From Patescibacteria group bacterium (lineage in GTDB: Bacteria > Patescibacteriota > Patescibacteriia > JACQRZ01): a stretch of DNA of 64,000 nt. Below, piece by piece: positions 22,890 through 43,823 of this stretch; the first letter of the stretch is position 1; the number at the start of each line of letters is the position of its first letter. Location of the stretch: assembly GCA_038065125.1 (NCBI GenBank), contig JBBTRP010000006.1, forward strand, positions 172-64,171, given 5' to 3'. The position numbers and the translations under genes were made by a program. The notes under the pieces are model-generated. The model saw only the letters and a program-made list of their open reading frames with translations, was not told the origin of the DNA and made no database searches.

Positions 22890-23873
22890 ATGGTCATTAC
22901 CAGAACACCATTTCGCATCTCATTTTTCGGCGGAGGCAGCGACTATCCGACGTGGTTTAATCAGCACAGTGGAGCCGTGCTGTCCGCAACGATCAATAAG
23001 TACTGCTATATTAGCTGCCGCTATCTGCCGCCATTTTTTGAGCATACAAGCAGGGTCGTGTGGTCAAAAATCGAGTCAGTGAAAGGTGTCGACGAGATTC
23101 AGCACCCAGTTGTGCGTCATGCCCTGCAATGGCTCGGCATTTCCGAAGGTCTGGAGATCCACCACAATGCCGACCTTCCGGCACGTGCGGGCCTGGGATC
23201 AAGTTCGTCGTTTACGGTCGGTTTTCTCAATGCCCTCCAAGCACTGCAAGGCCGACTAAGCACTAAGTATCAGTTGGCACTCGACGCAATTCATGTCGAG
23301 CAGGAGCTCTTGAAAGAGAACGTCGGCTGTCAGGATCAAACGGCAGCAGCGTTCGGGGGGCTCAACAAGATCGAGTTCGGCGGAATGGAACAGGTGAAGG
23401 TCTCGCCCATGGTTTGTTCGCGCGAGCGCTTGAAAGAGCTGGAGAGTCATTTGCTTCTGTACTTTACGGGTATGTCGCGAACGGCATCTGAGATTGCTGC
23501 GGAGCAAATCGCAAATATTCCCGACAAAGAACGCGAGATACGCGAGATGGTCAGGTTCGTCGACGAGGCGGTCACCATTCTTCACTCGCTCCAGTGGGCG
23601 GATCAGTTTGGCAAGCTTTTGCATGAGACCTGGCTTTTAAAAAAAACGCTTTCGAGCAAGATTGCAAACCCTCTTATCAATTCGTTATACGAAGAGGCGA
23701 GAAGTGCAGGCGCTCTTGGCGGCAAGTTGTTGGGCGCGGGTGGCGGAGGTTTTATGCTCTTTTTTGCGAAGCCGGAAAATCATCCAGCTATCAAGCAGCG
23801 CCTCGCAAATTTTTTACATGTACCGTTTGAGTTTGAGACGTCAGGGAGTCAGATCATTTACCATGCAAATTAA
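22890..23873 (+). CDS. GHMP-family sugar kinase, D-glycero-alpha-D-manno-heptose-7-phosphate kinase (HddA)-like
   Basis: TPFRISFFGGGSDYP N-terminus. GHMP motif PARAGLGSSSSF. C-terminal GAGGGGF. Confidence 0.65.
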   Translation: MVITRTPFRISFFGGGSDYPTWFNQHSGAVLSATINKYCYISCRYLPPFFEHTSRVVWSKIESVKGVDEIQHPVVRHALQWLGISEGLEIHHNADLPARAGLGSSSSFTVGFLNALQALQGRLSTKYQLALDAIHVEQELLKENVGCQDQTAAAFGGLNKIEFGGMEQVKVSPMVCSRERLKELESHLLLYFTGMSRTASEIAAEQIANIPDKEREIREMVRFVDEAVTILHSLQWADQFGKLLHETWLLKKTLSSKIANPLINSLYEEARSAGALGGKLLGAGGGGFMLFFAKPENHPAIKQRLANFLHVPFEFETSGSQIIYHAN

Positions 23874-24976
23874 TGAGAATTGGAATAATCGGCGCCGGTA
23901 TTATTGGTCTTTCGTGCGCACGAGAGTGCCGGAAGATTTTTCCGAACGCAGAGATTATCGTCTTTGAAAAAAATGCCGCGGCATTTTCTGAAAACAGCAT
24001 CCACAACAGCGGAGTCGTACATTCGGGCATTCATCAAAAATTAGGGTCGCTCCGCAGTTCATTCGCGCACACCGGAAGCAAGCTACTGACCGATTACTGC
24101 CAGCAAAATGAAATCCTATGCAAACCGACTGCGATGCTCATCGCTATTGCCCCCGCCGATATGCCCTCGCTTATCCGAGAGGCATCAATACTGTTTCGAC
24201 TCTGGGAAAACTCCCGTCGACAGAGGATTCGGCCGCCGAAGGTCGTGTTTAAAAAAGATATATACGCGCTTGAGCCAAACATTTCAGCGATCTGCGGACT
24301 ACTGCTCTCAGGCATTTGGGTGATCGATCAGAAGTCATTGGGCACGCAACTAGTCCGTGAGATGGAAGGTATCGGTGTAGACATTCGTTTACGGACGGAA
24401 ATAAAAAGCATTTCATTTAATGGCGAGTATGCGGTGTTCGGTACCGATACTGCCGAGGAGAGTGTTACCCACGTAATTAATTCAGCAGGACTGCACGCCG
24501 ACATCATCGCGCGCATGGCAGGATTCGACGCGCCAGAGATCTCTCCAGTACGTGGCGAATACTATGAAGTCTTCAGTGATAAAAAAAATCTCATTCATTC
24601 ACACCTCATCTATCCTGCGCTCCCCCCAGGCCATCCGGTGAAAGGTATACACTTCACAAAAACTGCTGACGGACGACTTCTCATCGGGCCAAATGCCACC
24701 GCCTGGGATCGGCGTGAGGACGATGCTTCGGACCAGAGCCCTAAGAAGGAGTTTGTCGACGCGGTCAAAAAATTTTTGCCTTCCCTCACACCAGAGGACA
24801 TACAGTGGGCCTACTCCGGCATTCGCCCCAAGATCGGTGGGAGCGCTGAAGAGCATGACTTTATTGTGCGGAGAGAGCAATCCAGAATTCCATTTGTCAA
24901 TCTCATCGGCATCGAATCCCCGGGCTTTACCGCAAGTTTTGCCCTCGCAGAATACGCTGCAGGACTCCTACTGTGA
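23873..24976 (+). CDS. FAD-dependent oxidoreductase (DAO/LhgO-like)
   Basis: MRIGIIGAGIIGLSCA dinucleotide-binding motif. DAO-family C-terminus (GIESPGFTAS). Confidence 0.75.
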   Translation: MRIGIIGAGIIGLSCARECRKIFPNAEIIVFEKNAAAFSENSIHNSGVVHSGIHQKLGSLRSSFAHTGSKLLTDYCQQNEILCKPTAMLIAIAPADMPSLIREASILFRLWENSRRQRIRPPKVVFKKDIYALEPNISAICGLLLSGIWVIDQKSLGTQLVREMEGIGVDIRLRTEIKSISFNGEYAVFGTDTAEESVTHVINSAGLHADIIARMAGFDAPEISPVRGEYYEVFSDKKNLIHSHLIYPALPPGHPVKGIHFTKTADGRLLIGPNATAWDRREDDASDQSPKKEFVDAVKKFLPSLTPEDIQWAYSGIRPKIGGSAEEHDFIVRREQSRIPFVNLIGIESPGFTASFALAEYAAGLLL

Positions 24977-24981
24977 CCGAC

Positions 24982-26436: not shown

Positions 26437-26438
26437 AG

Positions 26439-27143: not shown

Positions 27144-27152
27144 CAATTTAAT

Positions 27153-29184: not shown

Positions 29185-30071
29185 AAAAAATACAAGGTTT
29201 ACTACTGCTTGCCCGTCCGTATCAATGGCATAAAAATGTACTCGTCCTAGCCGCGCTTTTATTTTCCGGGCAACTTGAGAGTGTGTCCTCAGTTCAGCTT
29301 TCACTCGTGGCATTCTTTGCTTTTTGCCTCCTTTCTTCAGCGATCTATGTAATAAATGACATTCGCGATTGCGATGACGATCGTCATCACCCAGTAAAAC
29401 AAAAACGCCCGCTTCCGACAGGAGATGTGACATTGATTCACGCATGGGTACTGAGTATAGTTCTTCTCGTTTGCGGAATGTTGGTAAGTTTCTTTCTTGG
29501 AATTTCTTTTTTTGCGGCTGCAGGTGCATATGTCGTTTTGAACGGTTGTTATACATTTGCCCTGAAGAGGATTCCACTTCTGGAGATTTTTTCAGTCGCT
29601 ATGTGTTATGTGCTTCGTGTTGTTGCTGGCGCCTTTGCGATCCATGCTCCCGTAACACCCTATCTACTGATTGCAAGTATGTTGCTATCCATTCTCCTCA
29701 TTCTTGGAAAGCGCAGGCATGAGCGTATGCTCTTTCTTGAAACGGTCCCATTACACCGACCGGTTCTTGCTCAGTATTCCATACAATTTTTGGACCAGCT
29801 TACTACAATATCAGCCGCGGCGACTCTTATTGTGTATATTCTCTATACCCTTGACGAGCACACAAGGACACTTACAGGAAGTTCACTCATGCCCCTCACT
29901 ATACCGTTTGTCATCTATGGTCTCTTCCGCTATCTTTTGATTGTTGGTAATCTTGATCGCGGCGGCGATCCGTCGAGAGATCTTCTTCTCGACAAACCTC
30001 TTCTCGCCACGTCGTTGGTATGGGTAGGAAGCATTATCCTCATTATTTATTCTGCCCGCCACTCCTTATGA
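29172..30071 (+). CDS. UbiA-family prenyltransferase, decaprenyl-phosphate phosphoribosyltransferase (DPPR synthase)-like
   Basis: NDIRDCDDDRHHPVKQKRPLPTG (NDxxDxxxD + basic patch). About 8 TM. Confidence 0.75.
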   Translation: MVLIKKIQGLLLLARPYQWHKNVLVLAALLFSGQLESVSSVQLSLVAFFAFCLLSSAIYVINDIRDCDDDRHHPVKQKRPLPTGDVTLIHAWVLSIVLLVCGMLVSFFLGISFFAAAGAYVVLNGCYTFALKRIPLLEIFSVAMCYVLRVVAGAFAIHAPVTPYLLIASMLLSILLILGKRRHERMLFLETVPLHRPVLAQYSIQFLDQLTTISAAATLIVYILYTLDEHTRTLTGSSLMPLTIPFVIYGLFRYLLIVGNLDRGGDPSRDLLLDKPLLATSLVWVGSIILIIYSARHSL

Positions 30072-31405
30072 AGCATGATCCGCTCCAAATCCAATTGTTT
30101 CGTAGTAAGCGCGTTCTTGTTTTAGGAGACATCATGATTGATCATTACATCTACGGCGATTCAAACAGAATTTCTCCAGAAGCCCCAGTTCCTATAGTAA
30201 ATCGTAAGTCAGAATCCTACCATCTTGGCGGAGCCGCTAATGTGGCGCACGCAATTACGTCTCTTGGTGCAGAGGTTCTCCTGTGTGGAGTGGTTGGTAA
30301 TGATGATGCAAAGTCGATCGTTTTTAACCTCCTCCACAAGGCCGCAATCGCATCGCACGGCATTTTCTTTTCGGACACAAAAAAAACGGTCATCAAACAA
30401 CGCATCGTCGTCAACGGTCATCACATGCTTCGTCTTGACAGCGACGACACCCCGTACTTCTCTGAGGAGGATTGTCGGCGTTTTACGGCCATGGTCGAGC
30501 CGTTGATTGTTTGGGCAGACGTGGTGCTTTTTTCCGACTACGGAAAAGGCGTGTGTTCCCCGTCGCTGGTCAAACGAATCCTTGCACACGCAAAAGCGCA
30601 TGGCAAAGCCGTGATTGCAGATTTTAAACCAGGAAATGACGCACGCTTTTGCGGGGCGAACCTTATTGTTCCGACCGAGCAGGAGACGCGAGAACTTACC
30701 GGATGCAGTACATTTATGGAGGCGGGCCCACGTCTCGTGAGTGAATACCAGTCAGATGTGTTGGTGACACGCGGAAAAGAAGGAATGACGATTTTCTTCA
30801 AAAATGGGGACACCACTTCCATTCCCCCTAATCCCATGAACGAGTTTGACGTTACGGGAGCAGGGGATACGATCCTTGCGATTCTCGGTTTGGCATATGC
30901 GGTCGGAATGCCGCTGCATGAGGCAGCAACACTTGCGAATCGAGGAGAGGGGATTGTGGTGCAAAAGCCCGGAACTGCGACCGTAAGTCTTGAAGAACTA
31001 ATTTCGAGTGTCGAAGACAATCGTCATATCGAAGGCGTTAGTCTTGTGCCCAAGATCTGGGGATATGAGAAATGGTTGGAAAATAGTGATAAGTACTGTT
31101 CAAAAATTCTTTCACTCAATAAAGGGTTCCAGTGCAGCCTTCACTACCACAAAATGAAGGACGAGATGTTTCTTATACTTAAGGGGCATGTACGCATGGA
31201 GGTTGGCGACACCGTTTCACATATGCGCGAAGGTAACTTTGTTCGTATCGCACCCGAGACCCCGCATCGATTTACTGGAATTGACAATTCGATGATTTTG
31301 GAGGTTAGTACCTATCACGACGAGGGTGACTCATATCGAATACAAGAGAGTAGGAAACTAGACGAGTATGAATTCAGCTTCCTCGCTCCCGGTCGCACTA
31401 TATGA
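30068..31405 (+). CDS. HldE domain I-like (pfkB) D-heptose-7-phosphate kinase fused to a C-terminal metal-binding cupin domain
   Basis: RfaE-I motifs (VLVLGDIMIDHYIYGDSNRISPEAPVPIV, GGAANVA, DVTGAGDT). C-terminus contains the cupin motif G(x5)HxH(x4)E(x6)G as GFQCSLHYHKMKDEMFLILKG. ATGA overlap with the upstream gene sets the start at 30068. Confidence 0.75.
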   Translation: MKHDPLQIQLFRSKRVLVLGDIMIDHYIYGDSNRISPEAPVPIVNRKSESYHLGGAANVAHAITSLGAEVLLCGVVGNDDAKSIVFNLLHKAAIASHGIFFSDTKKTVIKQRIVVNGHHMLRLDSDDTPYFSEEDCRRFTAMVEPLIVWADVVLFSDYGKGVCSPSLVKRILAHAKAHGKAVIADFKPGNDARFCGANLIVPTEQETRELTGCSTFMEAGPRLVSEYQSDVLVTRGKEGMTIFFKNGDTTSIPPNPMNEFDVTGAGDTILAILGLAYAVGMPLHEAATLANRGEGIVVQKPGTATVSLEELISSVEDNRHIEGVSLVPKIWGYEKWLENSDKYCSKILSLNKGFQCSLHYHKMKDEMFLILKGHVRMEVGDTVSHMREGNFVRIAPETPHRFTGIDNSMILEVSTYHDEGDSYRIQESRKLDEYEFSFLAPGRTI

Positions 31406-31926
31406 GAAGAGCTGTGTTCTTTGATCGGGATAACACTTTAAATAAAGATGCTGGGTACACACATACAATCGAAGAATACCAACTTCTGCCCAGCGTTCTG
31501 TCCACTCTCAAGAGGTTGGAGAAAACAAATTTTTTGAAAATCATTATCACTAATCAGTCTGGCATTGCGAGAGGATATTATGCGGTAGAGCATTTCGATG
31601 GGTTTATGACTCACATGCTCAATGATTTTAAGGGCAATGGAGTTACAATAGATGGCGTGTATCACTGTGCTCATTTACCTGATGATTCGTGCAACTGCCG
31701 AAAACCGCAGCCCGGCATGTTTTTTCAAGCTGCCACAGATCACGGCGTTGATCTTTCAATCAGTTGGTCCGTTGGTAACTCCCACTCAGATGTCGTCGCC
31801 GGAAAACGTGCGGGAGTCCGAACGATAATGCTCGGCGCAAGTAATACTGTTGACGAGGAGGCGACACCTCACCATAGTGTCGAGACGCTTGATGCTGCGG
31901 TCGATATTATTATGGGCACTCAATGA
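31402..31926 (+). CDS. gmhB: D,D-heptose 1,7-bisphosphate phosphatase (HAD-IIIA)
   Basis: VFFDRDNTLN motif I. CxC zinc-binding loop (DDSCNCRKP). Confidence 0.8.
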   Translation: MRRAVFFDRDNTLNKDAGYTHTIEEYQLLPSVLSTLKRLEKTNFLKIIITNQSGIARGYYAVEHFDGFMTHMLNDFKGNGVTIDGVYHCAHLPDDSCNCRKPQPGMFFQAATDHGVDLSISWSVGNSHSDVVAGKRAGVRTIMLGASNTVDEEATPHHSVETLDAAVDIIMGTQ

Positions 31927-33455
31927 AAGTCAGCCAGCTTGGGAAAAATATTATTACGTCATTCGTCGGCCAGGGCATTCTCCTGGTTTCTTCTTTTATC
32001 TCAACACACGTTATATATCATCACTTAGGACGAGATGTATTGGGACTTCTGAATTTTTCGCTTCTGATCACATCCTTTTTGGTAAGCTTTTTGGATTTTG
32101 GCATCAGTGTGGTTGCGACACGCGAGTTGGCCGCCTATCGATCAACGAGGCCAGAATACACTGAGTCGATTATTCGTTCACTTTCGTTTATCTCACTCCT
32201 TACGTTCTGCCTCTCTTCTCTTGTGATCGCGCTCCTCTCGCCACTTCTATTGAACGGTTGGGTGCGTCTTGAAAATATTTCTGTTGTTAATTCCTGGGTG
32301 CTTGTCTCCTTTGTATGTATCTCTGTTGGGCTTTTGCTGGGAATTCTGAGAACATTTTACAGTATTGTCCTCAACGGCTATGAGCGTGTTGACGCCGTAC
32401 AATGGTCGCAGGTTTCGTTCGTCGCGATCCAGCAGATTGGACTTATTACACTACCGCTTATCAAGAGTAGCTTATTTGTTATTGCTGCGTGGTATTTGGT
32501 ATCGGGCCTGGCGGGAACGGCTCTATTCGGGTGGCGAGCATTTCGTGTTGCGGGGTGGCCGTTGTTTCGGCCGCGCGCATCCTTTTTTTTCCTCCGTAAT
32601 AATGCGAGGTATGCCGTGGAAAATTTTTTTGCAAGTTTTTCAGGAACACTCATTTTCCAGTCGGACAAGTGGCTCATGAGCAGATTTTTCCCGATCGGAA
32701 TGCTGGGGTTTTACACATCCACGCAGGCGCTAGCCGGTAAGGGTACGATCCTTGCAAGCTCGGTGGTTAGCGCAATTTTCCCCTCGATTTCACATGACGT
32801 GGAGAATGTGAGCGTAAATGAGTGGCGGAAACGGTATGCGGTTGCGCAAGATATTTGTTTAGTTACGTCGGGGTGTCTACTTGCTGCCATCTATTTTTTT
32901 GGGACAGATCTTTTGACCGGAATTTTTTCTGCAGAGATTGCCCTACAGATGAAGTATCCGCTGTTCATCTTGTGTGTGGGGGCGTTTTTTCACGCGAGTC
33001 TCTATGTGCCCAGCTGGGTTGCTATTGCGATGAAGAAGACCGATATGCTTGTGAAGGCAAATTGTGTAAGCATGGTAATAGTTTTTCCGTTGTTGTGGTT
33101 CCTTGCCAGTAAATTCGGAATACTCGGCCTCTCGACAATCACGCTTCTGTTCATTTGCGTCCAATATGTTTTTTTTATCCCGCGCTTTGCAGCCGAGTGC
33201 ATCCAATCGTCAGCGTGCCTATGGTATCGTCATGCATTCGCTCTTGCAATGTCTGCGGGCGTGACGTATGGTAGTTTCTATGCTCTCTCGACTTTTTTTC
33301 CTGGGATCGCGATCCGAGTAGCGTTCTATTGCGCTGGCACTGCGGCCTTCCTTGTAATCAGTAGTCAGTTGGTTAGCGTTCGACTTGCTGATGTCCTACG
33401 CGAATTAATTACAAACGCTTTTTCAAAAATACTTCCTTACCGTAACATCGTATGA
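31923..33455 (+). CDS. wzx: O-antigen/polysaccharide flippase (Wzx, MOP superfamily)
   Basis: 510 aa, 12-14 TM. PST-family order. Confidence 0.8.
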   Translation: MKVSQLGKNIITSFVGQGILLVSSFISTHVIYHHLGRDVLGLLNFSLLITSFLVSFLDFGISVVATRELAAYRSTRPEYTESIIRSLSFISLLTFCLSSLVIALLSPLLLNGWVRLENISVVNSWVLVSFVCISVGLLLGILRTFYSIVLNGYERVDAVQWSQVSFVAIQQIGLITLPLIKSSLFVIAAWYLVSGLAGTALFGWRAFRVAGWPLFRPRASFFFLRNNARYAVENFFASFSGTLIFQSDKWLMSRFFPIGMLGFYTSTQALAGKGTILASSVVSAIFPSISHDVENVSVNEWRKRYAVAQDICLVTSGCLLAAIYFFGTDLLTGIFSAEIALQMKYPLFILCVGAFFHASLYVPSWVAIAMKKTDMLVKANCVSMVIVFPLLWFLASKFGILGLSTITLLFICVQYVFFIPRFAAECIQSSACLWYRHAFALAMSAGVTYGSFYALSTFFPGIAIRVAFYCAGTAAFLVISSQLVSVRLADVLRELITNAFSKILPYRNIV

Positions 33456-34669
33456 GTGGCACGATTACCGAGTGTCGGGTCTGCGCCTCGCCCATTCTTG
33501 AACCGGTCATCGATCTTGGATCGCAGCCATGGTGTGGCAATTTTCTGAAAGAAGATGCAGTTGGTACGGAGCCGCTATTTTCTTTGCGGTTAGTATATTG
33601 TGAGCGATGTTGTACACCGCAACTCGACTACACCGTGCCAAAGGAGTATATGTTTTCCGACCATACATATCTCTCGAATATCACATACACGCTGAGTAAT
33701 CACTTTAAGTCAGTTGCGCAGGAGGTGAAGCAGCGATTTTTCAGGGCACAAGACACGCCATCAGTTCTTGACATAGGCTCAAACGACGGTCTCGCACTCA
33801 AACACTACCAAGACCTTGGATTTGATGTATTAGGCGTTGAGTCAGCTAAAACTGCGGCACGTCTTGCGCGGGAAGCGGGGATACCAACAGAGAATGCGTT
33901 CTTCGATCTTGGGTTTGCAGAGCGACTCGGTCGCACGTTCGATGTGGTGAGCGCCTCAGGAGTCTTTTTCCACCTCGAAGATCTCCATTCGGTCGTAGAA
34001 GGGATTAAAAGAGTCCTCGCTCACGACGGAATATTCGTTGTACAGTTTTTGTACATGAAGAGAATTATAGAAAACCGGGCATTTGATCAGATCTACCACG
34101 AACACTTGCTGTACTATACTCTCAAGAATATTGCAACACTTCTCAATAGTCATGGAATGGAGATGTTTGATGCATATCTATCCTCGATTCATGGTGGTTC
34201 GATCATCGGATTCATCACGCATAAGGGGAGACAGCCCCAGTCACAGCGCCTCGGCGACCTTCGATCCATCGAGGATCGAGATGAGACAAACATGAAAAAA
34301 ACATACCTTTCTTTCGCAAAATCGATTGAGGTGATGAAGGTAGAAAATCTTGAGTACCTTGAGAGAAAAAAATCTCAAGGTAAAACCATCTTCGGCTTTG
34401 GCGCACCTGCAAAAGGAAATACACTTCTGAACTATTTTAATATCGGCGGGCAGTACCTTGATCTTTTGGTCGAGAAAAATCGTCTTCGTAAAAATTTATA
34501 CTCGCCAGGACAGCACCTTAAAATCGTGATGGAAGACGAGCTCGCCGCCCCTCCGGATGTGTACTATGTGTTGGCATGGAACTTTAAGGACGAGATCCTC
34601 GCTAAGAATGCGCACCTTATCGAAAAAGGAGTTGAGTTTTATTTTCCGGTCGACCCTCTCGCCGTATGA
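33452..34669 (+). CDS. NDP-hexose C-methyltransferase (TylCIII/NovU/EvaC family) #1
   Basis: N-terminal Zn ribbon (CRVCASP..CERCCTPQL). SAM motif (VLDIGSNDG). C-methyltransferase C-terminal domain. Confidence 0.85.
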   Translation: MSGTITECRVCASPILEPVIDLGSQPWCGNFLKEDAVGTEPLFSLRLVYCERCCTPQLDYTVPKEYMFSDHTYLSNITYTLSNHFKSVAQEVKQRFFRAQDTPSVLDIGSNDGLALKHYQDLGFDVLGVESAKTAARLAREAGIPTENAFFDLGFAERLGRTFDVVSASGVFFHLEDLHSVVEGIKRVLAHDGIFVVQFLYMKRIIENRAFDQIYHEHLLYYTLKNIATLLNSHGMEMFDAYLSSIHGGSIIGFITHKGRQPQSQRLGDLRSIEDRDETNMKKTYLSFAKSIEVMKVENLEYLERKKSQGKTIFGFGAPAKGNTLLNYFNIGGQYLDLLVEKNRLRKNLYSPGQHLKIVMEDELAAPPDVYYVLAWNFKDEILAKNAHLIEKGVEFYFPVDPLAV

Positions 34670-35580
34670 GGGTGTGTGTTACAGGAGCGAGCGGGTTTGT
34701 CGGGAGTGCCCTTTGCCCATTTTTAGAGGGTCAAGGGCATGAAGTTGTGCGTCTCACCTCACGAAGCGCAGATCTCACTAAGCAAGGAAGTCTCGAGCCG
34801 TATGCCTCGATGAAGTTCGACGTGATCTACCACCTTGCGGCATGGACACAAGCAGGTGACTTCTCGCTTCATCATTGCGGTGAGGAGTGGATGATCAATC
34901 AGGCAATGAATACCAACCTGCTCACTTGGTGGGCGACTGTCCAGCCTCAAGCAAAACTGATTGCAATTGGAACAAGCTGCTCCTACGACCCGTCACTTCC
35001 TCATGTTGAGGAGAATTACACGCTCGGCATGCCAACCGAGAGCCTTGTGACGTACGCGATGACAAAGCGGATGATCTATTACGGCCTTAGTGCGCTTAAC
35101 CGTCAGTTTGGTTTACGCTATCTTACGGTCGCACCATCTACTATCTATGGTCCGGGCTATCAGTTAAGAGACGGTAAGCAATTACATTTTATTTTTGATC
35201 TGATCAGAAAGATTGTACAAGGAAAGCTCACTGGCGAGGAGGTCGTACTGTGGGGCGACGGATACCAGAAACGCGAGCTTATTTACATCGACGACTTTAT
35301 TGCTGTCTTAGTTGGGCTTGCTGGCATATGCGAGAATATGTTGGTCAACATCGGAGGGGGCGAGGAGCACACCATCCGGGAGTTTGCGGGGATGATATGC
35401 GATGACGTTGGATATGATCCTGCACTTATCCAGTATGACACGAGCAAGTTTGTTGGTGCGCGAGCAAAATTTTTGATTATTGACAAGCTCAAGGGCCTTC
35501 TTCCCGACATCTCATTTACACCGCTTCGCCAGGGGCTGACACAGACGATTGCGTGGTATTGGAATCAGTTGAATGCATGA
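34666..35580 (+). CDS. GDP-L-fucose synthase-like NAD(P)-dependent epimerase/reductase (extended SDR)
   Basis: MRVCVTGASGFVGSAL. YAMTKRM (YxxxK). Confidence 0.75.
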   Translation: MRVCVTGASGFVGSALCPFLEGQGHEVVRLTSRSADLTKQGSLEPYASMKFDVIYHLAAWTQAGDFSLHHCGEEWMINQAMNTNLLTWWATVQPQAKLIAIGTSCSYDPSLPHVEENYTLGMPTESLVTYAMTKRMIYYGLSALNRQFGLRYLTVAPSTIYGPGYQLRDGKQLHFIFDLIRKIVQGKLTGEEVVLWGDGYQKRELIYIDDFIAVLVGLAGICENMLVNIGGGEEHTIREFAGMICDDVGYDPALIQYDTSKFVGARAKFLIIDKLKGLLPDISFTPLRQGLTQTIAWYWNQLNA

Positions 35581-36625: not shown

Positions 36626-36681
36626 TGGGTCAACCCATTGACGAGAAAGGTCTTGCCTGGAATACTATCTTCACTGTACGA

Positions 36682-37914
36682 ATGACTATGGACACTATTA
36701 GTTGCTGTAGAGTCTGTCAAAACCCGCGCCTACATAATTTTTTTCATTTGGGCGATCATCCGCTTGCCAACTCGCTTCTCTCAAATCCAAATGATCCGGA
36801 GCAGAAATACCCGTTATCTTTAAGCTGGTGCCAAGATTGTTCGCTCGTACAACTAAATGAGACCGTAGACCCTAAGGTGCTCTTTTCACAGTACGTCTGG
36901 GTAACGGGGACATCGCAGGGCGCACGAGAGTATGCCGAAGTGTTCTGCAAAGAGCTCTTAGAACGGATTGAGCTTTCTGCCGGAGACTTTGTTCTTGAAA
37001 TTGCAAGCAATGATGGGACATTTTTAAAACCTTTTCGCGCACGAGGAATCACTGTCGTAGGCATCGATCCAGCTGAAAATATTATCAAAACAGCTAACGA
37101 GGATGGTATCCCAACTGAGCCAGTGTTCTGGGGGGTCGAATCTGCTCATGTATTGCGAAAAAAATATGGGAGGCCGCGTGTTATTTTTGCGCGCAACGTA
37201 CTGCCTCATGTCGCCAATACGCAAGACTTTGTTCGCGCGATTGCTGACACGGTCGTTGAGGATGGGCTTGTTGCCATCGAGGTTCATTATGCCCGGACCA
37301 TCCAGAAAGAGTTACATTACGACTCCATTTATCATGAGCATCTTTGCTACTTTACCGTTGAGAGTCTCGAGCGACTGTTGCGCGAGGCAGGATTGTACGT
37401 ATTCGATGTGAATGAGAGTCCTTTGAATGGTGGGTCAATAGTTGTCTATGCTTCTCGCACTCCGAAGCAGACGTCACCGCGACTTGATGGGAGTCGAGCG
37501 AATGAGCGAGAGAGTAAAATAAATTCCCTCGAGAAGTGGCAAGAGTTTTCTCGCGCTGCCACGCGCCACGCCTCAGAGTTTCGAGCCCTTCTTTCGAGAG
37601 TCGGTGGAAATCACGTCGTTGGATGGGGGGCCTCTGCAAGGAGCTCAACGCTTTTAAATTATTGTGGTATTACGCGAGAGACAATAGCGGAAGTTGCAGA
37701 CATGAACCCACTCAAGCAGGGATTATTCACGGCAGGAACCGGAATTCCAATTCGAGCACCGGGTGTCGTTTTTCAGACAAAGCCTGACCTTGTCGTTCTC
37801 CTTGCATGGAACTTTACTGACGAGATTCGTGAAAGTCTCCGGACCGACTTTTCTTATTCCGGAGCAGTCATTACCCCTCTACCAGGAGCTCCGACACTCC
37901 ACCCTTCATCGTAA
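36682..37914 (+). CDS. NDP-hexose C-methyltransferase (TylCIII/NovU/EvaC family) #2
   Basis: CRVCQNP..CQDCSLVQL Zn ribbon. VLEIASNDG. Paralog of 33452-34669. Start taken at the MTMDT Met, since the longer ORF abuts a divergent gene. Confidence 0.8.
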   Translation: MTMDTISCCRVCQNPRLHNFFHLGDHPLANSLLSNPNDPEQKYPLSLSWCQDCSLVQLNETVDPKVLFSQYVWVTGTSQGAREYAEVFCKELLERIELSAGDFVLEIASNDGTFLKPFRARGITVVGIDPAENIIKTANEDGIPTEPVFWGVESAHVLRKKYGRPRVIFARNVLPHVANTQDFVRAIADTVVEDGLVAIEVHYARTIQKELHYDSIYHEHLCYFTVESLERLLREAGLYVFDVNESPLNGGSIVVYASRTPKQTSPRLDGSRANERESKINSLEKWQEFSRAATRHASEFRALLSRVGGNHVVGWGASARSSTLLNYCGITRETIAEVADMNPLKQGLFTAGTGIPIRAPGVVFQTKPDLVVLLAWNFTDEIRESLRTDFSYSGAVITPLPGAPTLHPSS

Positions 37915-37942
37915 CTTCTCCCATATTTTTAATCAGGAATAT

Positions 37943-38392
37943 ATGCTTGACGGAGTTCAAGTCACGCCACTAAAAAAAATTCCAGATGTGCGCGGCACCA
38001 TTATGCCTGGTGTCCGTTGTGACACGTTGATGAATCCTTTCGGCGAGGTCTATTTCAAGAAGCTGTATGCAGGTATTATCAATGGGTGGCATGTACATGA
38101 GACGCTGACGCTGAATTACATCTGTATTGCGGGAATGATCAAGATCGTTCTTTACGACATGCGGGAGAGCTCTCTGACATTCAAGCAGTTGCAGGAAGTG
38201 TATCTTGGTGATGACAACTATGCGCTCCTCCACATTCCTCCTGGGATTGCGAATGCCGTAAAAAGTATCGCCTTACCTCACGCACTTTTTTGCAACATCG
38301 CATCTGAGCCGCATAATCCGAATATAAAGTACAGAAGAATCGATCCGCACTCGAGCGAGATACCATACGATTGGAGCAAAAAAGATTTTTAA
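37943..38392 (+). CDS. RmlC/FdtA-like cupin sugar-nucleotide 3,5-epimerase or 3,4-ketoisomerase
   Basis: 149 aa from the internal ATG. RmlC-like segments (HVHETL, LLHIPPGIANAVKSI). Confidence 0.7.
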   Translation: MLDGVQVTPLKKIPDVRGTIMPGVRCDTLMNPFGEVYFKKLYAGIINGWHVHETLTLNYICIAGMIKIVLYDMRESSLTFKQLQEVYLGDDNYALLHIPPGIANAVKSIALPHALFCNIASEPHNPNIKYRRIDPHSSEIPYDWSKKDF

Positions 38393-38404
38393 GAAGTCCA
38401 CCCG

Positions 38405-39007
38405 ATGACGGACGTTAATGTATTTATCGAGACCTTTACGCATAAAGTCACTACTGCGCTTTGCTCTGTTTCAGTCGAGCAGATAAAATCGGCAATTGCA
38501 GCCCTTCGAGCGTGTTGCACTCGTTCGGGTCGCGTGTATGTTTTCGGAAACGGTGGTTCCTATGCAATGGCAGGGCATTGGTCAAGCGACTTGAATAAAG
38601 CAATTCTGTATAGGAGGGGCCGCAAGCGAACACAGAGTGATTTCTGTGTCGTTCGCTTGCCGATGAGTGACGCCGAATTAACCGCATGGGCAAACGACAG
38701 TGGCTATGATAGTGTATTTGCGGGTCCCCTGATGCATCTTGTCCGACCCGCCGATCTTGTAATTGCTCTTTCATGTTCCGGAAACTCTCTCAATGTTCTC
38801 AATGCTGTCAATGTCGCGAAACAGCTGGCCGTTCCCGTCATCGGATTCACTGGCTTTGATGGCGGAGAGCTTAAAAAAATTTCTGATATTTCAATTCATG
38901 TGCAGACAGAAAAGTCGGAGTATGCTGCGGTTGAAAGCGTTCACGCGACAGTCCTGAATCTCTTAACTGACTTCTTCAACACGAACGACAGTACGCTTGC
39001 GATATGA
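38405..39007 (+). CDS. gmhA: phosphoheptose (sedoheptulose-7-phosphate) isomerase, SIS domain
   Basis: GNGGS, ANDSGYDSVF, SCSGNSLNV, GFTGFDGG match GmhA signatures. Confidence 0.85.
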   Translation: MTDVNVFIETFTHKVTTALCSVSVEQIKSAIAALRACCTRSGRVYVFGNGGSYAMAGHWSSDLNKAILYRRGRKRTQSDFCVVRLPMSDAELTAWANDSGYDSVFAGPLMHLVRPADLVIALSCSGNSLNVLNAVNVAKQLAVPVIGFTGFDGGELKKISDISIHVQTEKSEYAAVESVHATVLNLLTDFFNTNDSTLAI

Positions 39008-39819
39008 CCATGAATAAGAACATCCCGATTGTGATTTTGTGCGGTGGAAAAGGAACTCGTCTCAAAGAGGAGACGGAGTATAAACCAAAACCTCTCGTTC
39101 GAATCGGTGAAAAGCCGATCCTTTGGCACATTATTAAACTTTACGCGCACTTTGGCTTCTCGCGTTTTATCCTCACACTTGGATATAAAGGAGATATGAT
39201 TAAGGATTATTTTCTGAATCATCGCTTTCTCGGCAACGACTTTACGCTTCACTGTTCCACTAATCAAATTGACTTTCATAGCGACGACACACTTGACGTT
39301 TCAATTACCTTTGTAAATACCGGCAGCGAAGCACTGACCGGCGAGCGTCTTCAAAAGATTAAGAAGTATATTGACACAGATTATTTTATGGTAACCTATG
39401 GGGATGGAGTTGCTGACATCAACATTGAACGACTGCTGCGCTTTGCTCTGGAACAAAAAACACTTGGAACGATTACCGGTGCTCACCCCCATTCTAAATA
39501 CGGAATGCTGAAGGTACACAAAGATCTAAAGGTTGCTGAGCATTTTGTGCAAAAACCGTTGATGCACGACCTTATCAACGGTGGATTTATGGTTTTTCAA
39601 AAAAGTTTTTTTGAATATCTCGACAACACTATCATGGAAAATGCATTTGAAAAATTAATTCAGGAAAAGCATCTTTCTGTCTACGAGCACGATGGTTTTT
39701 GGATGGGAATGGATACTTATTCCGATGTCGAGGCACTCAATGAACTATGGAGGACTGAGAGGCCTTGGGCTCTGTGGGAGGAAAACCCCGAGTATGTTAC
39801 AGGTTCACGCCTTGCATGA
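39004..39819 (+). CDS. rfbF: glucose-1-phosphate cytidylyltransferase-like sugar-1-phosphate nucleotidyltransferase
   Basis: VILCGGKGTRLKEETEYKPKPLVRIGEKPILWHII is a near-canonical RfbF N-terminus. ATGA-type overlap with gmhA. Confidence 0.85.
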   Translation: MTMNKNIPIVILCGGKGTRLKEETEYKPKPLVRIGEKPILWHIIKLYAHFGFSRFILTLGYKGDMIKDYFLNHRFLGNDFTLHCSTNQIDFHSDDTLDVSITFVNTGSEALTGERLQKIKKYIDTDYFMVTYGDGVADINIERLLRFALEQKTLGTITGAHPHSKYGMLKVHKDLKVAEHFVQKPLMHDLINGGFMVFQKSFFEYLDNTIMENAFEKLIQEKHLSVYEHDGFWMGMDTYSDVEALNELWRTERPWALWEENPEYVTGSRLA

Positions 39820-40870
39820 TTTTTACAAAGGAAAGAAGGTTCTCATTACCGGACATACTGGTTTTAAGGGGGGCTGGCTTTCGCTAGCGCTTATTCGTCT
39901 TGGCGCACGCGTCTCCGGGATCTCCCTAGACCCGCCCGAGAAGAGTTTTTTTAATTGCGTGGGTATAGGTACTCTTCTTATTGACCACCGTCTCGACATT
40001 CGTAATGCCGATGCCATTGCTGGAGTAATTGCAGCAGAGCAACCTGATGTCATTTTTCATTTAGCGGCTCAACCTCTAGTGCGCGAGAGCTATAATGAAC
40101 CACTTGCTACATTTGCAACGAATGCGCTTGGCACTGCGCATGTCCTCGAGGTGATCCATTCTATCGAATCAATCCGCTCAGTCGTTTGTATCACCACAGA
40201 CAAGGTATATGAAAATGTCGGAGACGGTAGAGCGTACGCAGAAACTGACCGGCTTTCCGGCCATGATCCGTACAGTGCGAGTAAAGTGTGCGCTGAAATG
40301 GTTGCGCGCGCATACCACGCATCCTATGAGACTCTCGAACGAGAGGTTGGCATTGCAACAGCTCGCGCGGGAAATGTCATCGGGGGAGGGGATTGGGCAT
40401 GCGATCGTCTCGTTCCGGATATTATACGTTCTCATTTTGAGGGGACTCCGCTCGTTATTAGAAATCCTCAGGCATCCCGTCCGTGGCAGCATGTGCTTGA
40501 ACCTCTTTATGGATATATGCTTCTCGGTCGTGAGTTATACATGAGACCGAAAGAATTCTGCGGGGCATGGAACTTCGGACCGCGAGATGAAGACCAGTGT
40601 TCGGTTCAGGAGATACTCACAAAGATCGAGTATGTTCTCGACGTCAAGATGCGATACAATGTCTCGAGCGATTTATTGAGGCCAGAGGCACATCTACTTC
40701 GATTGAGCAGCGAAAAAGCAAGGATGCGGCTTGGATGGTGTCCGCTTCTTAATCTTGATCAAACCATATACATGACGAGTGATTGGTATCGACTCCAGAA
40801 TACGGGGCAAGACATGCGGAAAGTGAGTGAGTCCCAAATAGAAACTTTTTTCTCTGCAGTTACACCATGA
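39794..40870 (+). CDS. rfbG: CDP-glucose 4,6-dehydratase-like (extended SDR)
   Basis: FYKGKKVLITGHTGFKGGWL. YSASKVCAE. Start ATG 39794 overlaps the rfbF end by 26 nt; TTG 39812 is an alternative. Confidence 0.85.
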   Translation: MLQVHALHDFYKGKKVLITGHTGFKGGWLSLALIRLGARVSGISLDPPEKSFFNCVGIGTLLIDHRLDIRNADAIAGVIAAEQPDVIFHLAAQPLVRESYNEPLATFATNALGTAHVLEVIHSIESIRSVVCITTDKVYENVGDGRAYAETDRLSGHDPYSASKVCAEMVARAYHASYETLEREVGIATARAGNVIGGGDWACDRLVPDIIRSHFEGTPLVIRNPQASRPWQHVLEPLYGYMLLGRELYMRPKEFCGAWNFGPRDEDQCSVQEILTKIEYVLDVKMRYNVSSDLLRPEAHLLRLSSEKARMRLGWCPLLNLDQTIYMTSDWYRLQNTGQDMRKVSESQIETFFSAVTP

Positions 40871-41751
40871 CCATGAAACGATTACTCATTATTGGTGGAT
40901 CGGGTCAGCTTGGAGCGGCGCTTCGTAAAGACGCATCTTTTTTCGGCTATGAAGTATTCTCGCCGTCGAAGAAAGATCTTGATATTACCTGCGAGAGTTC
41001 AATCCTAGAAGAGTACGTACAAGACTGCGCACCGAATCTCGTTATTAATGCGGCGGCATATAATCTCGTTGCGTCGTCCGAAAATTTTCCGCTTGAAGCT
41101 ATGAACCTCAACTGTTTTTTTGTGGCAAATCTTGCTGCAGCGTGTTCAAAGATCTCTGCTCCTCTCGTGACTTATAGCACGGATTACGTCTTTGATGGAA
41201 AGAAAGGATCGCCGTATATTGAGCATGAACAGCCAAATCCCCTCCAGATGTATGGTATTTCAAAGTGTGCCGGCGAGTATGCAGCCCGAGCGTACTATGA
41301 AATGGGGTCGATTGTTATTCGCACCTGCGGCATCTATGGAGGCATTTCGGGAAGTAGACAAAAAGGGGGAAATTGCGTACTCAACTTCATTCGCCAATTG
41401 CGATTGGGCCTCAGCTTTTCCGTCAGCGCAGACCAGTGGGCAACCCCGACCTACGCCCAGTCAGTCAGTTGTGCGACCCTTGCTCTTCTTGAAACAGAAC
41501 CAGCGGCTGGCATCTATCATCTTGTCAACGAAGGGCATTGCTCATGGTATGACTTCGCACGAGAGATCAAACTCTTGATCGGCAGTTCAACACATATCGA
41601 GCCGATAGAGACTGATAAAAGTACTGTACCTGCCAGACCCCTTTTTTCAGTTCTTAGCAATGCGAAAGCGAAACGTCTAGGCATCCAACTGCCTTTTTGG
41701 AAAGATGCATTGGCCCAGTATATTGAGAGTGAACTCCTCCTAAATCGCTAA
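40867..41751 (+). CDS. RmlD-like NDP-4-keto-6-deoxyhexose reductase
   Basis: RLLIIGGSGQLG. YGISKCAGE. RmlD substrate-binding domain order. Confidence 0.8.
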   Translation: MTMKRLLIIGGSGQLGAALRKDASFFGYEVFSPSKKDLDITCESSILEEYVQDCAPNLVINAAAYNLVASSENFPLEAMNLNCFFVANLAAACSKISAPLVTYSTDYVFDGKKGSPYIEHEQPNPLQMYGISKCAGEYAARAYYEMGSIVIRTCGIYGGISGSRQKGGNCVLNFIRQLRLGLSFSVSADQWATPTYAQSVSCATLALLETEPAAGIYHLVNEGHCSWYDFAREIKLLIGSSTHIEPIETDKSTVPARPLFSVLSNAKAKRLGIQLPFWKDALAQYIESELLLNR

Positions 41752-41764
41752 CCGACCTGTAGGC

Positions 41765-42853
41765 ATGAAGCAAAAAGTAAGTATTTGCATCCCGGTATAT
41801 AATGGAGGTCAGTTACTGCGAAGGGCCATCGAGTCCGCGCTTACTCAAACGCACCCCACTGTTGAGGTTGTCATTGTGGATAACGCGAGTACAGATGAAA
41901 CGCCTACGCTTGTGGCAGAGTACGAGGCAAAGGACTCACGCGTAAAAAGCTTTCGGAACGAAAAAAATATCGGTAACAACCCGAATATTTTAAGGTCTTT
42001 TCAGCTTGCCACTGGCGACTTCGTCCAGCTACTGTGCCACGATGACTGGCTCTCACCCACGTATATTGCTGATGTTTATAGATTATTTGAACTTCATCCC
42101 GAGAGCTTATTTTGTACAGGAAAGGTTGTCGGATTTTTGTCAGATGAAGGCTTTTCGATCACAGAGTGCAATTATCAGAACTATTTTACCCGTGAAAAGT
42201 ACTCGATCTCGGATATACTAGGAAAGCTCTATTCATCAATCTGGTTGCACTATACTATTCTTGGAATGATGAGAAAAGATGATGTTGATAAGGCGATAGC
42301 GAACATGCCCGATGCCGTCTATCAGCAAAACTTCAGTTCTACTGATACGAATGGCTATTTACGGCAGATTTTTTCTGATGCATTTTTGATTCTTGTCATC
42401 CAGTCTCTTTTCTCATATCGATGGATCGGGGCGACTAATTCATGTTTTTATGCAAAAGTAGGCACAACGGTGACCAAAGAGCGCGTGGAGCGTATCTACC
42501 CGCGTAACACAATTCAGCAAGTCGTTGAATACCAAACAATGATTGCGGAGCACTATAGTAAGCTTTATTCGACGCTTGGTTTTTTAAAGTACCTTCCAGC
42601 GATGAAATACTATTTTTCACGCACGCTACTCAATGAACTTGTGATCCACTGCCTGAAGACTAAAACCTCATTACGGGCACTCTTACAGCATAAAAATGTA
42701 AGAGATTATCTAGCCTCCATCCCAAGAGTGCGACTCTTGGCTGAAATTATTCGCTGTTTGCCGTGGCTTGTCTTGAGAGGATTAGCGTATAATGCCCGCG
42801 GGCAAAGAAAAAAAAGGTTTACCAGCTTCTGCGTGCCGCCTACGCCCCTGTAG
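41765..42853 (+). CDS. glycosyltransferase family 2
   Basis: VSICIPVYNGG..VVIVDNASTDET..HDD. Confidence 0.8.
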   Translation: MKQKVSICIPVYNGGQLLRRAIESALTQTHPTVEVVIVDNASTDETPTLVAEYEAKDSRVKSFRNEKNIGNNPNILRSFQLATGDFVQLLCHDDWLSPTYIADVYRLFELHPESLFCTGKVVGFLSDEGFSITECNYQNYFTREKYSISDILGKLYSSIWLHYTILGMMRKDDVDKAIANMPDAVYQQNFSSTDTNGYLRQIFSDAFLILVIQSLFSYRWIGATNSCFYAKVGTTVTKERVERIYPRNTIQQVVEYQTMIAEHYSKLYSTLGFLKYLPAMKYYFSRTLLNELVIHCLKTKTSLRALLQHKNVRDYLASIPRVRLLAEIIRCLPWLVLRGLAYNARGQRKKRFTSFCVPPTPL

Positions 42854-43823
42854 TATAACGTTTCATGTCCGCATCGACCATCATTTCAACGAGGCCAGAA
42901 AAGTCAACCGTGTGCCGCCATCCGAGAATGCGGAGTGCTTTCTCTGAGTTTCCGTGCAGATGATCGACGTCTGTGGGACGCTTGTGGGTAGACGTCGAAA
43001 TAACATATCGCTCCCAGTCAGCAATGTCTACATGTTCGAACGAACGCTGAACGAATTCGCGCACAGAATGACTCTCGCCGGTTGCTACGGCAAAGTCGTC
43101 TGGCACATCGTGTTGGAGCATGCGATACATCGCTTCTACATAATCTCCCGCAAAACCCCAATCGCGCCGAGCGTCTAGGTTCCCAAGCTCGAGCTTTTCA
43201 GCAAGTCCAAGCTTGATGCGCGCAACGGCGTCCGTGATTTTTCGTGTAACGAACTGCTTGCCGCGAAGAGGGGATTCATGATTGAAGAGAATGCCGTTTG
43301 CCGTAAAGAGGCCATAGGAGTGGCGGAAGTTGACAGTAATCCAGTAAGCGTTCAATTTTGCAATGGCGTAGGGACTTTGGGGATTGAAGGGCGTATTTTC
43401 GTCTTGTGTTCCGTCCTCTGATTTGCTCCCGCCGTACATCTCAGACGTCGACGCCTGGTAGAATTTCGAAAGCGGAGAAAAGAGCTTGATAGCGTTCAGG
43501 AGGTAAATCACACCGAGTGCGTTGACTTCAGTTGTGAGTTTTGCGAGGTCCCACGAGAGGCCCACAAAGGATTGCGCGGCAAGATTGTAGACTTCAGTGG
43601 GTCTGAGTTGCTTGACGAGGCGCAACAGTGACGCCTCATCCGTGAGGTCGCCGTCGACCAACTCAACATCCTTCGTGATTCCCAGCCAGTCGAGATTCGA
43701 GAAGTTTGGGTTTGAGTACCTACGGAGCATGCCGTAGACCTTATAGTCCTTCTCAAGTAGGAGTTTTGCAAGATAGGGACCGTCTTGGCCCAAAATTCCG
43801 GTAATCAGTGCCGTCTTTTTCAT
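42840..43823 (-). CDS. gmd: GDP-mannose 4,6-dehydratase
   Basis: ALITGILGQDGPYLAKLLLEKDYKVYG, SEMYG, YAIAKL, NHESPLRG are canonical Gmd motifs. Confidence 0.9.
   Translation of the reverse strand: MKKTALITGILGQDGPYLAKLLLEKDYKVYGMLRRYSNPNFSNLDWLGITKDVELVDGDLTDEASLLRLVKQLRPTEVYNLAAQSFVGLSWDLAKLTTEVNALGVIYLLNAIKLFSPLSKFYQASTSEMYGGSKSEDGTQDENTPFNPQSPYAIAKLNAYWITVNFRHSYGLFTANGILFNHESPLRGKQFVTRKITDAVARIKLGLAEKLELGNLDARRDWGFAGDYVEAMYRMLQHDVPDDFAVATGESHSVREFVQRSFEHVDIADWERYVISTSTHKRPTDVDHLHGNSEKALRILGWRHTVDFSGLVEMMVDADMKRYTTGA

Follow-up and report, generated by a model that had tools for sequence, protein, structure and literature searches.

Heptose-phosphate genes beside an RfbF-like cytidylyltransferase cassette in a Patescibacteria glycan cluster: a possible mosaic with an off-window heptose nucleotidyltransferase

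Gene content of the locus and search for a heptose nucleotidyltransferase

A window of 64 kb (the whole stretch of DNA analysed, 64,000 nucleotides of contig JBBTRP010000006.1 of a Patescibacteria group bacterium) was studied together with ~7 kb past its right end, ~71 kb in total. The left end of the contig lies ~0.3 kb beyond the window, and the GC content of the window is ~48%. Genes for the synthesis of heptose phosphates occur here, and one of them overlaps the gene of an RfbF-like sugar-1-phosphate cytidylyltransferase. An original prediction, made from the same DNA, had proposed that this enzyme provides the nucleotide carrier of a heptose. All of the alpha- and beta-type heptose-phosphate genes which it named were recovered. 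The Pfam search covered essentially every open reading frame (ORF) of at least 150 aa, and NCBIfam bits are quoted as score vs cutoff.

All but the last of the genes concerned lie on the plus strand. [quoted passage not shown] At 30068..31405 a protein of 445 aa is encoded, in which a pfkB kinase resembling HldE domain I (TIGR02198, rfaE domain I) is fused to a C-terminal cupin; the pfkB domain had been recognised in the original prediction, but the cupin had been overlooked. It is followed by a GmhB-like HAD-IIIA heptose-1,7-bisphosphate 7-phosphatase gene (31402..31926; PRK08942, TIGR01656). Further downstream, Pfam identified two nucleoside diphosphate (NDP)-sugar C-methyltransferases, C-MT1 (33452..34669, Methyltransf_13/14 type) and C-MT2 (36682..37914). 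An Fcl-like extended short-chain dehydrogenase/reductase (SDR), a candidate epimerase/reductase, is encoded between them at 34666..35580 (Pfam Epimerase; NCBIfam GDP-L-fucose synthase, 128 bits vs 500).

The core block continues with a short (149 aa) cupin of the RmlC-like kind that may be a 3,5-epimerase (37943..38392; PF00908, 37 bits), and a divergent GmhA-like SIS protein (38405..39007; SIS_2 and SIS). Next come the RfbF-like cytidylyltransferase (39004..39819; TIGR02623, 256 bits vs 300.25), a cytidine diphosphate (CDP)-glucose 4,6-dehydratase of RfbG/DdhB type (39794..40870; TIGR02622, 426 bits vs 278, passing) and an RmlD-like 4-ketoreductase (40867..41751; TIGR01214, 238 bits vs 224, passing). 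A guanosine diphosphate (GDP)-mannose 4,6-dehydratase, Gmd, lies on the minus strand at 42840..43823 (TIGR01472, 399 bits vs 415; PF16363, 385 bits). The presence of gmd, the Fcl-like gene and two C-methyltransferase genes in the vicinity had thus been correctly noted. The rfbG-like, cupin and RmlD-like genes had been said to follow the cytidylyltransferase gene; this holds for the first and the third, but the cupin gene is located upstream of the SIS gene.

The original prediction had seen no homologue of HddC or of HldE domain II, and this was borne out by three methods in the 64 kb and the ~7 kb beyond. A six-frame motif scan of the window gave a single G-G-x-G-T-R site, which belongs to the RfbF-like protein, and no HxGH motif. 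The Pfam search revealed no heptose nucleotidyltransferase. Custom hidden Markov models (HMMs) of the Patescibacteria RfaE2 type and of the HddC type, the latter built from five short nucleotidyltransferases of related operons, were run against 1,282 six-frame ORFs (minimum length 40 aa) from the window and its extension, and only the RfbF-like ORF was matched (84 bits). The same protein fails the NCBIfam HddC model (72 bits vs 300). Apart from this match, no short (~220-250 aa) PF00483 nucleotidyltransferase of ManC/HddC type was found in the cluster, and the RfbF-like protein is the sole sugar nucleotidyltransferase in the window. A guanylyltransferase for Gmd was likewise found neither in the window nor in the extension, which indicates that at least one nucleotidyltransferase serving the cluster lies outside the window.

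The ATGA junction described between the SIS and rfbF-like genes was confirmed: the TGA stop of the former occupies 39005-39007 and the ATG of the latter begins at 39004. Most gene callers placed the start at a further ATG, at 39010. Overlaps of the ATGA kind were found at 7 of the 17 same-strand junctions of the region. Translational coupling is thus generic here, and the overlap was rejected as a sign of functional coupling.

The RfbF-like and SIS proteins and their relatives

The RfbF-like protein aligns over its full length with S. typhi RfbF (PDB 1TZF; E = 1e-56, residues 7-257). It retains GGxGTRL, the lysine of KPKP, TGxR and INGGF, and Q replaces E178; these we take to be the nucleotide- and phosphate-binding motifs of 1TZF. 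The score below the TIGR02623 cutoff is shared by clade members that stand beside dehydratases (264 and 282 bits). Conservation in the clade reaches 90% or more at 97 positions; the protein deviates at 6 of them, compared with 0-7 in 39 other members, and its gene is directly adjoined downstream by that of the CDP-glucose 4,6-dehydratase. Judged from its sequence, it is a normal member of its own clade with no sign of a changed function.

The genomic context of RfbF relatives was evaluated in 80 genomes of GTDB species (40-52% identity), 80 contigs from metagenomes (47-59%) and L174, the closest long contig (62%). In none of these 161 loci did a SIS gene stand beside the nucleotidyltransferase gene, even when matches at E of 1e-3 or better were accepted. 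Heptose-like genes occurred near the RfbF relative in just two loci, L047 and L064, and both were rejected as a link between RfbF and heptose. In L047 the kinase is unrelated and set apart by radical-SAM and signal-peptidase genes, and in L064 the alpha-heptose genes have a nucleotidyltransferase-GmhB fusion of their own. The latter locus (4921-12980), from a metagenome-assembled genome (MAG) of Isosphaeraceae, contains an RfbF cassette (RfbF, SDR, RmlC, SDR) beside a divergent alpha-heptose cassette with a GHMP kinase, the fusion and a Gmd-like SDR. Thus, the two pathways can adjoin, each keeping its own nucleotidyltransferase.

The closest relatives were found in self-contained cassettes of five functions devoid of heptose genes, in the order RfbF, RfbG, C-methyltransferase, RmlC, RmlD (L088 and L091) or SDR, RfbF, C-methyltransferase, RmlC, RmlD (L174). 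The window holds the same five functions in a changed order, with the SIS gene inserted. Compared with these cassettes, identity amounts to 44-48% for its RfbG-like protein (against the dehydratases) and 46-50% for its RmlD-like protein (against the reductases). The small cupin is 43-50% identical to cupins in several RfbF loci, and C-MT1 is ~33% identical to the C-methyltransferases of RfbF cassettes and of L168. The window Gmd displays 64-69% identity to Gmd of other Patescibacteria-type loci.

The SDR that precedes RfbF in L174 (8953-9987) belongs to an uncharacterised extended-SDR family with weak GalE/LegB-like matches, of which members were also observed in L166 (8597-9637) and L168 (8594-9628). 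In these two loci it is encoded between the SIS and HddC-like nucleotidyltransferase genes of heptose operons. The family appears to replace RfbG as the dehydratase.

The SIS protein matched 15 phosphoheptose isomerase/DiaA sequences in the PDB with E = 6e-19 to 6e-14. It is 100% identical to NCBI MEK7618662.1 ([quoted passage not shown]), and the identical protein was found on 11 contigs from several samples, Hainich groundwater assemblies among them. Over eight contigs the gene varies by one synonymous single-nucleotide polymorphism, a variation too low for a selection test. On the NCBIfam GmhA equivalog it reached 95 bits vs 276, and the SIS proteins of operons with a GHMP kinase and a nucleotidyltransferase gave 95-104 bits. 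Similarly, HddA was the top NCBIfam match of the GHMP kinase, with 143 bits against 139-165 for the operon kinases of the relatives. Since the operon relatives score equally low, the low values are a property of the lineage.

The SIS protein is 45-52% identical to a clade common in Patescibacteria, within which pairwise identity is 72-76%, even across phyla. It deviates at 37 of 108 clade-conserved positions, and 20 other members deviate at 1-8. At the catalytic and zinc-binding positions (61, 65, 172 and 180 in E. coli GmhA) the window protein has H, D, E and N, compared with H, D, E and H in the clade. The altered residue, H185N, corresponds to E. coli H180, as verified with the numbering of PDB 2I22, and the asparagine is unique among 22 aligned sequences. 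Following Taylor et al. (2008) and Harmer (2010), H180 is presumably both a zinc ligand and a catalytic residue. The phosphate-binding motifs GNGGS and SxSGNS are kept, as are H61, D65 and E172, all as in the clade. Catalytic roles in GmhA have been assigned to E65 and Q172 (PMC4697000), and the conservation of the ligands of its zinc site has been described as excellent (PMC11056994). As far as the conserved positions tell, the gene that looks altered is that of the SIS protein and not rfbF.

The GHMP kinase is 38-42% identical to the operon kinases; among themselves these share 52-68% identity. The motifs GLGSSS and GAGGGG are seen in its translation. Its gene lies 15 kb upstream of the SIS gene, overlaps by 1 nt a gene for a flavin adenine dinucleotide (FAD)-dependent oxidoreductase, and is not part of an operon of GmhA, GmhB, HddC type in the window. 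In all four contexts of the SIS clade that were examined (L001, L166, L167 and L168) the order was GHMP kinase, SIS, in some cases the extended SDR, and a short ManC/HddC-like nucleotidyltransferase, with a GmhB-type HAD protein adjacent or fused; usually a dehydratase, an epimerase and a reductase then follow. This arrangement is an alpha-heptose operon. In L168 it is preceded by two further genes, giving the order C-methyltransferase, cupin, GHMP kinase, SIS, SDR, nucleotidyltransferase.

The kinase-cupin fusion and the surrounding glycan cluster

The kinase-cupin fusion scored 298 bits vs 345 on TIGR02198, and PRK11316 was aligned over just residues 4-319 of a 475-position model. Domain II of HldE is absent; in its place, approximately the last 115 residues form a metal-binding cupin (Cupin_2 and a weak PF01050 match) that lacks HxGH. 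The same architecture was found in more than 110 clusters at 41-53% identity, with named sources that are mostly Patescibacteria. The cupin is the more conserved half of the fusion, with an invariant H-x-H-x4-E...H site, and the weak PF01050 match recurs in most homologues.

An AlphaFold2 model was obtained with a predicted local distance difference test score (pLDDT) of 92. Its top fold matches in the PDB were the Thermococcus cupin phosphomannose isomerases 7ZVY and 7ZVM, with template modelling (TM) scores of 0.71-0.86 and 20-22% identity. Other cupins, such as KdgF and oxalate decarboxylase, scored nearly as high. Sequence-only PDB searches with the cupin gave generic cupins; the fold search alone ranked phosphomannose isomerases first, by a small margin.

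The adjacent GmhB-like protein fell just below the cutoff of PRK08942 (154 bits vs 178) and passed those of TIGR01656 (123 vs 84) and TIGR01662 (94 vs 45). Its gene is ATGA-coupled to that of the fusion, which is in turn coupled to an upstream UbiA gene in the order UbiA, kinase-cupin, GmhB. Four loci with relatives of the fusion were examined. In L173 the fusion occurs with a CTP_transf_like-HAD (GmhB) fusion, an SDR and a GT9 glycosyltransferase; in L001 a CTP_transf_like gene stands divergent from the fusion gene and a GT9 gene follows; in L003 the neighbours are transketolase, Rpe and RpiB. In L172 (Daviesbacteria) the fusion is accompanied by GmhB, GT9 and a flanking PMT_2 enzyme of the GT-C type, and no nucleotidyltransferase was found within 10 kb. 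In three of these loci (L003, L172 and L173) no SIS gene occurred within 10 kb. A metagenomic protein of 577 aa, P0118, was also observed, in which a cupin, a pfkB kinase and a CTP_transf_like nucleotidyltransferase are joined; it bears the motif KGRSTT. The motif (F/L)xxGRSTT has been linked to heptose nucleotidyltransferases that are promiscuous for the nucleoside triphosphate and make adenosine diphosphate (ADP)-, CDP- and uridine diphosphate (UDP)-heptose (PMC11573728).

The isomerisation by which sedoheptulose-7-phosphate becomes glycero-manno-heptose-7-phosphate corresponds, at the seven-carbon level, to what phosphomannose isomerase catalyses. Given the phosphomannose isomerase-like fold of the cupin, this domain probably supplies the isomerase step. 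From its context, the fusion is probably a GmhA-independent sedoheptulose-7-phosphate isomerase/kinase. Beta-heptose-1-phosphate, the anomer that this branch would make, is used in the ADP-heptose pathway by enzymes of the cytidylyltransferase fold and not by those of the RfbF/HddC fold. As the beta anomer would be unusable by the latter, one nucleotidyltransferase would still be missing from the window even if the RfbF-like enzyme made CDP-heptose. Literature searches revealed no description of the kinase-cupin fusion as an isomerase, no cupin-type sedoheptulose-7-phosphate isomerase, no RfbF-type heptose nucleotidyltransferase and no account of heptose pathways in Patescibacteria.

The genes considered here belong to a supercluster for cell-surface glycans, at least 63 kb long, of an uncultured groundwater bacterium of the Patescibacteria (candidate phyla radiation, CPR). 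The polysaccharide cluster runs as one unit from ~7.3 kb to the right end of the window; among its products are glycosyltransferases, initiating ones included, a Wzx flippase, aminotransferases, methyltransferases and numerous SDR enzymes. Its left boundary is a LytR-CpsA-Psr (LCP) ligase gene (7353-8858, minus strand), to the left of which the housekeeping genes for DprA, TopA, SOD and RelA are found. Past the right end of the window it continues with two Wzy_C polymerase/ligase genes and a Bac_transf fragment (L171, 10799-16282). The LCP ligase at one edge and the Wzy_C and Bac_transf genes beyond the other suggest a wall-anchored glycopolymer, to which a large share of a small genome is devoted.

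Between the GHMP kinase and kinase-cupin genes (23873-30071, with 45944-47542 on the minus strand) a module was observed that resembles the mycobacterial decaprenyl-phospho-ribose/arabinose route. Its UbiA protein is DPPR-synthase-like (226 bits vs 234 with the model for decaprenyl-phosphate phosphoribosyltransferase), and alongside it are a HAD-IB phosphatase, a pair of extended SDRs, the FAD oxidoreductase (L-2-hydroxyglutarate/glycerol-3-phosphate oxidase-like) and two large multi-pass membrane proteins without a Pfam match, which are candidate GT-C enzymes. The module suggests lipid-linked pentose donors in this bacterium.

Four sizeable ORFs of the cluster gave no Pfam match (35516-36625 on the minus strand, 20961-21764, 54955-55704 and 58481-59749). 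The first (369 aa) was also without an NCBIfam match and lies antisense to the operon, between the Fcl-like and C-MT2 genes. At 53116-56401 a split thiamine-diphosphate enzyme is encoded (E1_dh alpha-like, 303 aa; Transket_pyr beta-like, 302 aa), along with a 249-aa protein without a Pfam match and a HAD_2 phosphatase. Their products might attach a two-carbon branch to some sugar; alternatively, they may be part of a separate small-molecule pathway.

Interpretation and comparison with known systems

The reading favoured here, to which we give about an even chance, is that the region is a mosaic of modules of different origin and that the enzyme which activates the heptose has its gene outside the window. 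The absence of SIS genes beside RfbF relatives in all 161 loci, the ordinary RfbF-like protein, the degenerate-looking SIS protein and the generic ATGA overlap all point this way, as do the off-window nucleotidyltransferases that Gmd and the beta branch need in any case. Elsewhere, the fusion has a CTP_transf_like enzyme as its partner, which supports a mosaic: in L001 the two genes are neighbours, in L173 the partner is joined to GmhB, and in P0118 it is joined to the kinase-cupin itself. The fusion and GmhB of L172 provide a precedent for a dispersed nucleotidyltransferase. The seam of the mosaic is exactly at the SIS/rfbF junction, which, with the same even confidence as the reading to which it belongs, is taken as a recombination seam compacted like most junctions rather than a sign of a shared pathway.

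The first module would consist of C-MT2, the small cupin and the RfbF-, RfbG- and RmlD-like proteins. Most likely, alpha-glucose-1-phosphate and cytidine triphosphate (CTP) would be converted to CDP-glucose and then to CDP-4-keto-6-deoxyglucose, and a C-methylated, epimerised and 4-reduced CDP-6-deoxyhexose would be the end product. The second, formed by the kinase-cupin and GmhB, would lead from sedoheptulose-7-phosphate to beta-heptose-1-phosphate, with the isomerase step probably performed by the phosphomannose isomerase-like cupin. The GHMP kinase and the divergent SIS protein would be what is left of an alpha-heptose operon, or a copy of one that has diverged. The off-window nucleotidyltransferase would be of the CTP_transf_like RfaE2 type (beta), of the short ManC/HddC type (alpha), or both would exist, and the guanylyltransferase for Gmd would also be encoded outside the window.

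Several observations weigh against the mosaic. In all four SIS-clade contexts the nucleotidyltransferase gene is found one or two genes downstream of the SIS gene, and in the window this slot is occupied by rfbF. The C-MT2, cupin and SIS genes are syntenic with L168, where C-MT2 and the cupin have their most similar counterparts; the three products are 52%, 64% and 47% identical, so that the left half of the core block has heptose-operon ancestry; C-MT2 is just 33-38% identical to the C-methyltransferases of RfbF cassettes. The L174 SDR, directly upstream of an RfbF-clade nucleotidyltransferase, is 67% and 63% identical to those of L166 and L168, and in 11 of 160 loci RfbF-like genes are flanked by more distant relatives from its family, at 38-46% identity. 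As this family occurs with both nucleotidyltransferase types, these appear to have been exchanged ahead of homologous tailoring enzymes. The shared family could reflect the same sugar carrier, or the tailoring enzymes may tolerate both. Finally, the heptose-phosphate genes are all intact in a streamlined genome, yet no nucleotidyltransferase for them is present in ~71 kb.

These points lend some weight to the model of the original prediction, in which the RfbF-like enzyme makes CDP-heptose and the RfbG-like protein, C-methyltransferase, cupin and RmlD-like protein turn it into a CDP-6-deoxy (C-methyl) heptose. It is regarded as possible, though doubtful. Besides the operon slot, the L168-like flanks and the dehydratase family common to heptose operons and an RfbF-clade cassette, it can draw on the position of the RfbF-like enzyme as lone nucleotidyltransferase in ~71 kb, and on the common fold of RfbF and HddC, both of which act on alpha-sugar-1-phosphates (PMC6981941). 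The acceptance of mannose-1-phosphate by YpHddC makes promiscuity in this fold plausible (PMC6981941), and CDP-heptose is a natural compound, though made by HldE-type enzymes (PMC11573728). On the other hand, none of the 161 loci ties the RfbF clade to a SIS gene, or to a heptose kinase without a separate nucleotidyltransferase, and the RfbF-like protein carries no unusual substitutions. The SIS protein is highly diverged and has lost the catalytic/zinc histidine, the GHMP kinase belongs to another operon 15 kb away, and the ATGA coupling is generic. Moreover, no nucleotidyltransferase would be available for Gmd or for the pfkB kinase and GmhB of the beta branch. Thus, of the proposed role as heptose carrier, the HddC slot and the flanking genes stood up, but the context of the clade, the normal RfbF and the diverged SIS protein did not fit. 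The fuller version, in which a CDP-linked C-methyl-6-deoxyheptose is formed by dehydratase, C-methyltransferase, cupin and RmlD-like protein in parallel with a GmhA-independent pfkB-cupin isomerase/kinase, seems rather doubtful.

It is unlikely that the SIS protein and the GHMP kinase have left heptose synthesis altogether, by recruitment to another sugar-phosphate step, perhaps in the polyprenyl-phospho-pentose module, or, in the case of the SIS protein, as a decaying remnant, so that kinase-cupin and GmhB are the sole heptose module. The 37 deviations at 108 positions, H180N among them, fit such a change, since replaced catalytic residues mark non-isomerase homologues of GmhA such as DiaA (PMC4697000). 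The distance of the GHMP kinase from the HddA clade (38-42% identity) is that between unrelated lineages, and its gene overlaps the FAD oxidoreductase gene and adjoins those of a GT-C-like protein and the DPPR-synthase-like UbiA. However, the SIS protein retains its phosphate-binding motifs, H61, D65 and E172, the kinase retains ATP and substrate motifs with HddA as best family, and an alternative substrate is indicated by no match. Use of the heptose phosphate without a nucleotide carrier, for example by transfer to polyprenyl phosphate, is considered very improbable. It is suggested by the ATGA-coupled order UbiA, kinase-cupin, GmhB, by the GT-C-type membrane proteins of the cluster, and by the L172 pair, which is flanked by PMT_2 and has no nucleotidyltransferase within 10 kb. 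Nevertheless, DPPR synthases need a 1-diphosphate donor, phosphoribosyl pyrophosphate (PRPP), which is not made by heptose kinases, and L001, L173 and P0118 tie the kinase-cupin to a CTP_transf_like nucleotidyltransferase and a GT9 heptosyltransferase. We know of no precedent for such a carrier-free use.

If the mosaic reading holds, the locus is one more mosaic glycan cluster, in which Patescibacteria devote more than 60 kb of a small genome to heptose-, CDP- and GDP-sugar chemistry and tailoring modules are shuffled among nucleotide carriers. Action of an RfbF-clade enzyme on heptose-1-phosphate, on the contrary, would mean that CDP-heptose exists in an alpha-linked form and that branched 6-deoxyheptoses make up a new family; a CDP-linked C-methyl-6-deoxyheptose would represent a nucleotide sugar class so far undescribed. 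Should the pfkB-cupin be a non-homologous replacement of GmhA, current surveys of the enzymes that make NDP-heptose, the ALPK1 agonist (PMC11573728), would under-count producers, and such producers would escape GmhA inhibitors.

The core block is best compared with the CDP-6-deoxyhexose routes. In C. jejuni HS:41 the pathway comprises a glucose-1-phosphate cytidylyltransferase, a CDP-glucose 4,6-dehydratase, a 3,5-epimerase and a C4-reductase (PMC12369002), and its entry steps are like those of the RfbF/DdhA and RfbG/DdhB enzymes of Salmonella and Yersinia. The window likewise has an RfbF-like enzyme, an equivalog-level dehydratase directly downstream and, within the operon, a cupin of the RmlC type and a reductase of the RmlD type. 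It differs in the added TylC3-type C-methyltransferases, in the GmhA-like gene inserted so as to overlap rfbF, in the lack of pyranose/furanose mutase and 3-deoxygenation genes, and in a nucleotidyltransferase clade that stays under the NCBIfam cutoff (256-282 bits vs 300).

With the GDP-alpha-heptose route, of which 6-deoxyheptose extensions are known from C. jejuni, Yersinia pseudotuberculosis and Burkholderia pseudomallei (PMC7949155, PMC6981941), the window shares a GHMP kinase, a SIS protein and a HAD-IIIA phosphatase, and a 4,6-dehydratase, a cupin epimerase and reductases lie near. Unlike this route, it has no HddC, the dehydratase near the SIS gene is of the CDP-glucose and not of the Gmd type, the genes are spread over 16 kb, and the SIS protein has no equivalent of H180. 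The C-methyltransferases have no counterpart in known heptose routes. Of the components of the Campylobacter and Yersinia pathways, a resemblance to which had been pointed out, the window has candidates in Gmd, the Fcl-like SDR and the cupin, and has no GDP-forming nucleotidyltransferase. With no HddC, no HldE domain II and a missing GmhA catalytic residue, the locus is not filed as a member of the GDP-6-deoxyheptose system.

The ADP-beta-heptose route, whose HldE-type enzymes also make CDP- and UDP-heptose (PMC11573728), is approached by the pfkB kinase near rfaE domain I (298 bits) followed by GmhB, and by the fusion relatives that stand beside CTP_transf_like nucleotidyltransferases and GT9 heptosyltransferases. 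The window departs from it in the cupin that replaces domain II, in having neither a nucleotidyltransferase of this kind nor GT9, in its Patescibacteria host and in the LCP ligase gene at the cluster edge. Unlike the Thermococcus phosphomannose isomerases, the window cupin is fused to a heptose kinase and, from its context, would act on sedoheptulose-7-phosphate. Nonetheless, 7ZVY and 7ZVM, together with the C-terminal domain of type II phosphomannose isomerases (PF01050), are its best structural matches, and its His/Glu metal site is invariant.

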